Source: a virus | Lineage: Duplodnaviria > Heunggongvirae > Uroviricota > Caudoviricetes | Virus record (IMG/VR): IMGVR_UViG_2563366968_000008 | DNA length: 53,618 nt | Strand: one strand, 5' to 3' | Shown here: one piece after another, positions 20,494-21,986 of the stretch | Layout: the number at the start of each line of letters is the position of its first letter | How positions within the stretch are numbered: the first letter of the stretch is position 1 | Position numbers and translations under genes: made by a program | The notes under the pieces: model-generated | Databases searched by the model: none | The model's input: the letters and a program-made list of their open reading frames with translations, nothing else | What the model was told of the DNA's origin: nothing

Positions 20494-20845
20494 AGATCTA
20501 CATTTAAACCTGAAAGGAGAATACTTTTACGCCATCCGGGCGGGAAAGAAGGTGGAGGAATACCGACTTTATAATGACTATTGGCGTAAACGCCTGAAAG
20601 GGCGGGAATATGAACGCCTGATAATCAAGCTGGGGTATCCAGCCAGCCACGAAACACACCGGATCATAAACCTGCCTTATTTCGGGTATGAAGTGAAAAC
20701 TATCACACATCCATTGTTCGGCCCTGATCCTGTTAAGGAAGGTGCGAATAAGTGGGGAAATTCTTCTCGGCTGACTCAGTCATTTCATTTCTTCATGTTT
20801 GAGCCGATTTTTTCTCCCGTAAATGCCTTGAATCAGCCTATTTAG
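20477..20845 (+). pseudogene. ASCH-domain-like gene truncated by IS5 (native C-terminus resumes 21936..21990)
   Basis: HLNLKGEYFYAIRAGKKVEEYRL ASCH-like N-terminus; reading frame runs into IS5 left end at 20737; original frame continues after the right TTAA duplication to TGA at 21988-21990. Confidence 0.6.
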
Positions 20846-21931
20846 ACCGTTTCTTCGCCATTTAAGGCGTTATCCCCAGTTTTTAGTGAGATCTCTCCCA
20901 CTGACGTATCATTTGGTCCGCCCGAAACAGGTTGGCCAGCGTGAATAACATCGCCAGTTGGTTATCGTTTTTCAGCAACCCCTTGTATCTGGCTTTCACG
21001 AAGCCGAACTGTCGCTTGATGATGCGAAATGGGTGCTCCACCTTGGCCCGGATGCTGGCTTTCATGTATTCGATGTTGATGGCCGTTTTGTTCTTGCGTG
21101 GATGCTGTTTCAAGGTTCTTACCTTGCCGGGGCGCTCGGCGATCAGCCAGTCCACATCCACCTCGGCCAGCTCCTCGCGCTGTGGCGCCCCTTGGTAGCC
21201 GGCATCGGCTGAGACAAATTGCTCCTCTCCATGCAGCAGATTACCCAGCTGATTGAGGTCATGCTCGTTGGCCGCGGTGGTGACTAGGCTGTGGGTCAGG
21301 CCACTCTTGGCATCGACACCAATGTGGGCCTTCATGCCAAAGTGCCACTGATTGCCTTTCTTGGTCTGATGCATCTCCGGATCGCGTTGCTGCTCTTTGT
21401 TCTTGGTCGAGCTGGGTGCCTCAATGATGGTGGCATCGACCAAGGTGCCTTGAGTCATCATGACGCCTGCTTCGGCCAGCCAGCGATTGATGGTCTTGAA
21501 CAATTGGCGGGCCAGTTGATGCTGCTCCAGCAGGTGGCGGAAATTCATGATGGTGGTGCGGTCCGGCAAGGCGCTATCCAGGGATAACCGGGCAAACAGA
21601 CGCATGGAGGCGATTTCGTACAGAGCATCTTCCATCGCGCCATCGCTCAGGTTGTACCAATGCTGCATGCAGTGAATGCGTAGCATGGTTTCCAGCGGAT
21701 AAGGTCGCCGGCCATTACCAGCCTTGGGGTAAAACGGCTCCATGACTTCCACCATGTTTTGCCATGGCAGAATCTGCTCCATGCGGGACAAGAAAATCTC
21801 TTTTCTGGTCTGACGGCGCTTACTGCTGAATTCACTGTCGGCGAAGGTAAGTTGATGACTCATGATGAACCCTGTTCCATGGCTCCAGATGACAAACATG
21901 ATCTCATATCAGGGACTTGTTCGCACCTTCC
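20737..21931 (-). mobile_element. IS5 insertion sequence, complete (1195 bp)
   Basis: 16-bp terminal inverted repeats GGAAGGTGCGAATAAG (20737-20752) and CTTGTTCGCACCTTCC (21916-21931); flanking 4-bp direct repeat TTAA at 20733-20736 and 21932-21935. Confidence 0.9.
20883..21863 (-). CDS. insH: IS5 transposase InsH
   Basis: 326-aa product [40 protein letters not shown]... matches IS5 transposase as remembered; DDE motifs. Confidence 0.95.
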
Positions 21932-21986
21932 TTAAGGTATTCGCAATTAAATGTGATGTGAATTGGATGTTAAGGTGGGGTGAGCA

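Follow-up and report, generated by a model that had tools for sequence, protein, structure and literature searches.

Evidence for recent transposition of IS5 into an ASCH-like accessory gene of an mEpimmI-type Escherichia coli prophage

We analysed an Escherichia coli prophage recorded in IMG/VR as IMGVR_UViG_2563366968_000008, a stretch of 53,618 nucleotides on one strand (hereafter the window, whose coordinates are used throughout). In this prophage a complete copy of the insertion sequence (IS) IS5 interrupts a small ASCH-like gene that lies between a Q-like antitermination gene and the lysis genes. The arrangement is very probably the outcome of a recent insertion of IS5 into a TTAA of an accessory gene in an mEpimmI-type prophage, with one dispensable gene lost as the net result. 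Comparisons of the site with other genomes show an insertion that appears very recent, intragenomic and unrearranged: the same prophage with an empty site is present in E. coli M15, the junction is absent from all 5,426 complete E. coli genomes searched, the fused protein is on record once, and an identical sister copy of IS5 lies on the same scaffold. This agrees with an earlier interpretation made from the letters of the window without database searches (the sequence-only reading), which had called the insertion relatively recent and unrearranged.

The IS5 copy, its empty site and its sister copy

The IS5 copy and its parts are located as follows.

Positions 20737–21931, minus strand (the strand of the transposase): complete IS5, 1195 bp
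Positions 20733–20736: TTAA, left target-site duplication
Positions 21932–21935: TTAA, right target-site duplication
Positions 20737–20752: right terminal inverted repeat (IRR, at the 3' end of ins5A), GGAAGGTGCGAATAAG, matching the other end at 15 of 16 positions
Positions 21916–21931: left terminal inverted repeat (IRL, at the 5' end of ins5A), CTTGTTCGCACCTTCC on the plus strand
Positions 20883–21899, minus strand: ins5A, DDE transposase of 338 amino acids (aa), or 326 aa counted from the ATG at 21863

IS5 is described as 1195 bp long with terminal repeats that are "16 bp imperfect" (PMC11677980), and the element at 20737–21931 has exactly this length. The sequence-only reading had recognized a complete IS5 within a TTAA duplication and had described its 16-bp inverted repeats as perfect. 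On re-inspection TTAA is present on both sides as claimed, while the repeats are the canonical imperfect ends of IS5: GGAAGGTGCGAATAAG at the left and GGAAGGTGCGAACAAG, the reverse complement of the right end, agree at 15 of 16 positions, with the sole mismatch at repeat position 13 (T at 20749 vs G at 21919). The ends follow the 16-bp imperfect-repeat pattern GGAAGGTGCGAA(T/C)AAG and are the same as those of the P1/KH100 and MS8345 copies. A repeat finder returned an inverted arm of 21 nt at 95% around the element, an apparent extension that arises because TTAA is palindromic.

Annotated IS5 elements in 2,874 of the 5,426 complete E. coli genomes match the window element, the best at 1194/1195 (99.9%), i.e. 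with one mismatch over the full length; the annotation at these best-matching loci is "IS5-like element IS5 family transposase". Compared to the reference IS5 of lambda KH100/P1, 1190 of 1195 bases are equal (99.6%), leaving five differences. The ins5A open reading frame (ORF) is uninterrupted and matches the Pfam families DDE_Tnp_1 (1.7e-35) and DUF772 (3.7e-21). A C at 21741 changes isoleucine 53 of the transposase to methionine (I53M, 338-aa numbering). This variant is private: the exact I53M transposase is on record at only two places, both of them on the source scaffold, KB732375.1. Within the window IS5 is present as a single copy.

Uninterrupted relatives of the site were identified with a synthetic empty site, made of 600 bp from each flank joined through one TTAA. 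It matched E. coli M15 (NZ_CP185789.1, 592695–593894) at 100% over all 1200 bp, providing the empty counterpart in a related prophage that the sequence-only reading had suggested looking for. M15 harbors the same prophage, which aligns with window positions 7056–20738 at 99.8% (13.7 kb) and with 21932–27523 at 99.0% (5.6 kb), and the two alignments meet at one TTAAGG. Since the uninterrupted site has a single TTAA, the two copies flanking IS5 represent a genuine target-site duplication, as opposed to a chance match (1/256). The IS is missing from all 35 E. coli genomes and five phages with homologous sequence. A left-junction query (250 bp of phage and 250 bp of IS5) had no match in any of the 5,426 complete E. 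coli genomes or in the phage collection searched. The fused 120-aa protein that results from the insertion (P0005) is recorded once in the NCBI protein collection, from scaffold KB732375.1 of assembly GCA_000350885.1; base 1 of the window corresponds to position ~1,304,699 of this scaffold.

The same scaffold holds one further IS5.

KB732375.1, ~1370636–1371830, same orientation as the window copy: second IS5, between ydbH and ldhA

This second copy lies ~44 kb from the window copy, 12.3 kb past the end of the window. The two copies are identical at 1195/1195 positions, and the variant that they share is absent from all other genomes searched. The occurrence of this private variant in two identical copies within one genome points to one or more recent transpositions, indirect evidence that the I53M copy may be able to transpose. 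Together the two direct repeats enclose ~44 kb that include all of the lysis and structural genes of the prophage. The target duplication differs from copy to copy, being TTAA in the window, CTAA on both sides of the sister copy and TTAG in P1. The IS5 target consensus of ISfinder is YTAR, which TTAA fits. A different consensus, C(A/T)A(G/A), is given in PMC11677980, and from this one TTAA departs at its first position.

Three other origins of the arrangement were considered and rejected. The ydbH–ldhA copy is not an older, widespread donor site, as its junction was not found in any of the 5,426 complete E. coli genomes. Later recombination between the two copies is excluded by the matched duplication that each of them has retained. 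Acquisition of IS5 during propagation on K-12, a possibility for mEp phages, is at odds with the five differences from the K-12/KH100 type, and the window is an integrated prophage in the scaffold of a wild strain.

The interrupted ASCH-like gene

The insertion splits the gene into two parts.

Positions 20483–20845, plus strand: ASCH-like gene fused to IS5, 85 native and 35 IS-encoded residues, 120 aa (P0005)
Positions 21937–21990, plus strand: severed 3' part of the ASCH-like gene, consisting of 17 codons (VFAIKCDVNWMLRWGEQ) and the TGA stop

The native product is 102 aa long; M15 and most relatives encode it intact. Residues V84 and K85 are rebuilt by the duplicated TTAA together with the first G of IS5, so that 85 residues are kept, 17 are lost and 35 are gained; the sequence-only reading had counted 19 codons lost and 37 residues gained. 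In the uninterrupted gene the TGA stop codon overlaps the start codon of the next gene (ATGA). Within the block of 99–100% identity to M15 (7.4–27 kb) the ASCH-like gene is the only ORF that is truncated.

The native sequence is broken off after K85, which in the structural model lies midway along the final beta-strand (E80–90). The lost tail includes V86 and I89, which are invariant among the homologues, and F87 and A88, which are at least 90% conserved. Loss of the VFAI half of the last strand most likely inactivates the protein.

While the truncation claimed in the sequence-only reading is clear, its ASCH label is borne out only as a remote relationship. At the default threshold Pfam gave no match for the reconstructed native protein. 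With the threshold relaxed to E ≤ 10, ASCH (PF04266) was matched below its cut-off (13.5 vs 21.2 bits, E = 0.13) by the N-terminal 25 residues only, and 7 of 49 homologues match Pfam ASCH at E ≤ 0.01. The defining motif of the ASCH family is GxKxxExR. It is present as GKKVEEYR (G21-K-K23-V-E-E26-Y-R28), and K23, E26 and R28 are invariant in the 49 homologues. Some sources name the homologues "ASCH domain-containing protein" or "RNA-binding protein", and the PHROGs class of the protein is phrog_625, with function unassigned. A profile search of PDB sequences gave weak matches only, among them ribosomal L15 (0.043) and the ASCH proteins PH0355 (0.2) and PF0469 (1.9). An AlphaFold2 model, built on a natural homologue (P0001) that is 97% identical to the native protein, forms a small beta-barrel with a predicted local distance difference test (pLDDT) score of 88.4. 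When this model was compared with the PDB by Foldseek, the top 16 matches were all ASCH proteins, but at weak scores (E 0.03–0.5, template-modelling (TM) score 0.38–0.52).

A metagenomic relative (ENA ERZ1303445, NODE_682, 3180–3320) is homologous to window positions 20640–20736 and 21932–22040. In it a deletion of 23 bp, GTATTCGCAATTAAATGTGATGT, begins immediately behind the GTTAAG that marks the IS5 insertion in the window, and nearby base changes fuse its ASCH-like ORF with the next gene into a 162-aa product (P0009); coverage of this contig is ~3x. The deletion at the IS5 site could be a coincidence, a sequencing error or the mark of a fragile or hot site.

Gene order and identity of the prophage

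The window starts exactly at the ATG of a tyrosine integrase gene and ends at a stop codon, and thus looks like the record of an excised prophage. The integrase is followed by genes for a repressor, ERF, SSB, a methylase, NinG, RusA and the Q-like protein; after the Q-like gene come ~20 small genes, a terminator, the genes for holin, lysozyme and Rz, and then those for terminase, portal, capsid and tail. The features that bear on transcription across IS5 are the following.

Positions 10172–10462, plus strand: homologue of mEp021 Gp17, an N-like early antiterminator, 96 aa, of the same size and at the same position as mEp021_17
Positions 18967–19695, plus strand: Q-like antitermination protein (Pfam Antiterm, PF03589, 1.4e-30), 1.0 kb upstream of IS5
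Positions 21987–22202, plus strand: first gene past IS5, 71 aa (phrog_1222), 100% identical to its M15 homologue
Positions 25599–25627, plus strand: strong intrinsic terminator just before the holin gene, the counterpart in position of mEp021 TERM_5/t5
Positions 25642–26793, plus strand: lysis cassette, with holin (25642–25842), lysozyme (25844–26335) and Rz (26323–26793)

The prophage belongs to the mEpimmI (mEp021) group as judged by gene order and sequence similarity. Phages of this group are Nus-dependent and non-lambdoid (PMC11893012). The order of integrase, leftward replication genes, repressor, Gp17, ERF/SSB, methylase, NinG, RusA, Q-like gene, small genes, terminator and holin is shared between the window, the mEpimmI phages mEp021, mEp010, mEp013, mEp044, mEp515 and mEp554 (PMC11893012) and Escherichia phage MagusPhagus. 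The late region (25 kb) is 83–87% identical in DNA sequence to MagusPhagus, mEp010, mEp021, mEp044 and mEp554 over 68–84% of its length. None of these mEpimmI and MagusPhagus records, however, has an IS5 at the site of the window copy. The block between the Q-like gene and holin also differs, being ~1.9 kb in mEp021, which has no ASCH-like gene, and ~5.9 kb in the window with IS5 excluded. The small Q-to-t5 block of mEp021 and its lack of an ASCH-like gene place the target of IS5 in a variable accessory block and not among core functions. In the window this block (19688–25536) is composed of ~20 small, mostly overlapping or coupled ORFs, nearly all of which fall into PHROGs with no assigned function.

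The conserved arginines R17, R19, R20 and R24 described for Gp17 of the mEpimmI group (PMC11893012) are all present in the window homologue, which reads ...NARERRRIKR... (arginine-rich motif NARERRRIKRENERK). The mEp021 homologue of the Q-like protein, gp37, is annotated as late gene regulator Q. The Q-like protein itself is composed of two Antiterm (PF03589) stretches and a zinc-finger region of the DnaJ-type CXXCXGXG; two genes past it, a 116-aa ORF (19881–20231) has a weak DnaJ_CXXCXGXG match (E 0.0012). The terminator at 25599–25627 consists of GCCCGGCCACGCGCCGGGT followed by TTTTGCTTTG and lies 15 nt before the ribosome-binding site and start codon of holin. Its mEp021 counterpart, t5, was demonstrated experimentally (PMC11893012). 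With a strong terminator at this place, expression of the lysis genes needs antitermination. The lysis genes match the Pfam families Phage_holin_2_3, Phage_lysozyme and Phage_lysis, in agreement with the annotation of M15.

Elsewhere in the window, a stretch of ~0.8 kb (27615–28438), bounded by the next gene beyond the lysis cassette and by the small genes that precede terminase, contains no ORF of at least 90 aa, no tRNA and no Rfam match. The homologous stretch of M15 is unannotated and diverged (80% identity or unaligned). This region could hold the packaging site. No Rfam RNA family and no tRNA was found anywhere in the window. Relative to the M15 prophage there are mosaic replacements at 6290–7056 and 38912–39331; the window lacks counterparts of the M15 DUF559 gene and of a minus-strand gene that precedes the tape-measure gene, and the tape-measure proteins are 42% identical.

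Transcription across IS5, rival explanations and known systems

IS5 is located 3.7 kb upstream of holin, in the path of same-strand transcription towards the lysis and structural genes, and ins5A is antisense to this operon. The sequence-only reading was right in placing a minus-strand transposase inside a plus-strand operon upstream of the lysis genes. The stop of the fused ORF (20845) is followed by the next phage start codon only at 21987. The gene that begins there has kept its ribosome-binding site but has lost the ATGA stop/start overlap with the upstream gene. No convincing hairpin with a run of T, as expected of an intrinsic terminator, was found on the plus strand of IS5, which means that any polarity would be mainly Rho-dependent. 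A modest C-rich, G-poor stretch is present at 20790–20907 within the element.

The course of events that we propose is as follows. An active IS5 would have transposed very recently, within one E. coli lineage, into an integrated prophage of the mEpimmI type (mEp021-like), where it hit a TTAA in a small accessory gene and duplicated it. The last 17 residues of the 102-aa protein have given way to a 35-residue tail encoded by the IS, and the next gene would have been uncoupled from its ATGA overlap. After the Q-like gene and ahead of the terminator and holin, the rightward operon would now include ~1.1 kb that is transcribed antisense to the transposase and remains largely untranslated. During lytic growth, antitermination by the N-like protein (Gp17) and the Q-like protein would largely suppress polarity, and the net result would probably be the loss of one dispensable accessory gene from a prophage that is not disabled.

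Polarity on the lysis genes, a consequence suggested in the sequence-only reading, is in our analysis plausible but probably weak. A strong form, in which Rho or cryptic terminators within IS5 starve ~14 small genes, the lysis genes and the late genes and leave the prophage grounded, is unlikely. It would be favored by the untranslated gap from the stop of the fused ORF to the next phage start, by the excess of C over G at 20790–20907, by the loss of ATGA coupling and by the position of holin and all structural genes downstream on the same strand; terminator-like sequences in IS5 are also mentioned in the literature (PMC11677980). We rate it as the less likely outcome because a polymerase modified by the N-like or Q-like protein must in any case pass t5. 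Nus-dependent, N-like processive antitermination acts in this group from a nut site that lies upstream of the region, the window encodes a Q-like protein, and the plus strand of IS5 has no convincing intrinsic terminator. Complexes of the N type classically suppress IS polarity, as with lambda N and the gal IS mutants; Adhya, Gottesman and de Crombrugghe reportedly found in 1974 that lambda N relieves the polarity of IS insertions. A further reading, in which transcription of IS5 from the phage has an effect on the element, is quite improbable. Here induction of the prophage would drive antitermination-proficient transcription of ins5CB and thereby a burst of IS5 transposition, a viable phage would spread a live IS5, and the two direct copies could act as a composite element or as a substrate for deletion. 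The internal promoters of IS5 are nearly silent, transcription from outside into ins5A is required for transposition, and overexpression of ins5CB raises IS5 transposition ~2-fold in K-12 (PMC11677980). Transcription from the phage would enter ins5CB and not ins5A.

The remaining rivals concern how IS5 came to be at this site. That the insertion was selected, by silencing the ASCH-like gene or downstream accessory genes or by taming the prophage, is very doubtful: the 23-bp deletion of NODE_682 at the same GTTAAG also destroys the C-terminus of the gene and hints at repeated loss, but there is one IS-bearing genome, the metagenomic contig has ~3x coverage, and nearly all relatives have kept the gene intact. 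A short-read assembly artefact that misplaced a repeat in the prophage is highly improbable. The scaffold is a draft and holds two exactly identical IS5 copies, as collapsed repeats would appear; both junctions are nevertheless contiguous, with an exact 4-bp duplication of the TTAA that occurs just once in the empty site, which a misjoin would not create. The sister copy has a different matched duplication, CTAA, and both the fit of TTAA to YTAR and the TTAG duplication of P1 speak for a genuine target site. It is barely conceivable that IS5 is ancestral in this prophage lineage and that the empty site of M15 arose by precise excision. Precise excision has been reported once for IS5 (PMC11677980), and it would have to be reconciled with the absence of the IS from all 35 E. 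coli genomes and five phages with homologous sequence, with an IS5 that is identical to a neighbouring chromosomal copy down to its private variant, and with M15 flanks that are 100% identical, for which a single gain is more parsimonious.

Several points weigh against our preferred account, a recent insertion with little polarity. A scan of the plus strand for the lambda-consensus boxA (CGCTCTT) and boxB hairpin located no nut sites in the window. When promoters were sought by consensus, hits were less numerous than in shuffled controls, and the interval from the Q-like gene to holin showed no clear late promoter. The presence of an antitermination-proficient polymerase at IS5 is therefore deduced from homology to mEp021. 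Terminator-like sequences inside IS5 are reported according to works cited in PMC11677980. GCA_000350885.1 is a short-read draft, in which the assembler may have given both repeat copies one consensus, and the 100% identity of the two copies is for this reason not fully independent evidence. Lastly, "ASCH-like" fairly describes a remote relationship in sequence and model and does not stand for established membership of the family.

What the case offers is a clean, datable transposition of IS5, documented by sister donor and recipient copies and by an exact empty site. The 120-aa "hypothetical protein" of the source genome is a chimera of gene and IS and not a real protein. The IS-bearing prophage and its IS-free partner in M15 would form a convenient natural control for antitermination against IS polarity and for the phenotype of the ASCH-like gene. 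Beyond annotation the insertion matters little: it is a new instance of a known event and represents canonical, routine behaviour of IS5, with no new biology shown.

The interrupted protein has the GxKxxExR motif of known ASCH proteins (PH0355, 2z0t; ZmASCH, 5gus; E. coli YqfB, 9kyh), a model with a small beta-barrel, and ASCH proteins as its top 16 Foldseek matches; it differs from the proteins of PF04266 in staying below the Pfam gathering threshold, in its weak Foldseek scores and in belonging to phrog_625. The element resembles the reference IS5 of lambda KH100 cI::IS5 (GenBank J01735) in its 1195 bp, imperfect 16-bp ends, 4-bp duplication and DDE transposase ins5A, and differs from it by the five bases noted above, of which the C at 21741 is seen only in the two copies of the source genome.

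Earlier cases of IS5 in phages and prophages are nmpC of DLP12 and lomR of Rac (both in K-12), lambda KH100 and P1 mod749. The mEpimmI paper mentions no IS5 and no transposase (PMC11893012), and the specific site and host phage appear to be previously unreported. In nmpC::IS5 (K-12 prophage DLP12 and phage 434, record OL657227.1) the element likewise interrupts an accessory gene of a temperate phage close to a Q antiterminator gene; quuD adjoins nmpC in DLP12 (PMC11677980). There, however, ins5A is co-oriented with nmpC and the nmpC promoter drives transposition (PMC11677980), whereas in the window ins5A is antisense to the phage operon, and the host phage is lambdoid in the case of DLP12/434 and of the mEpimmI group here. 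P1 mod749::IS5 and lambda KH100 cI::IS5 are, like the window copy, phage-borne IS5 elements with a 4-bp duplication (TTAG in P1). Both are laboratory-propagated mutants with insertions in known genes, while the copy described here resides in a natural prophage of a draft clinical genome, in a gene with no assigned function.

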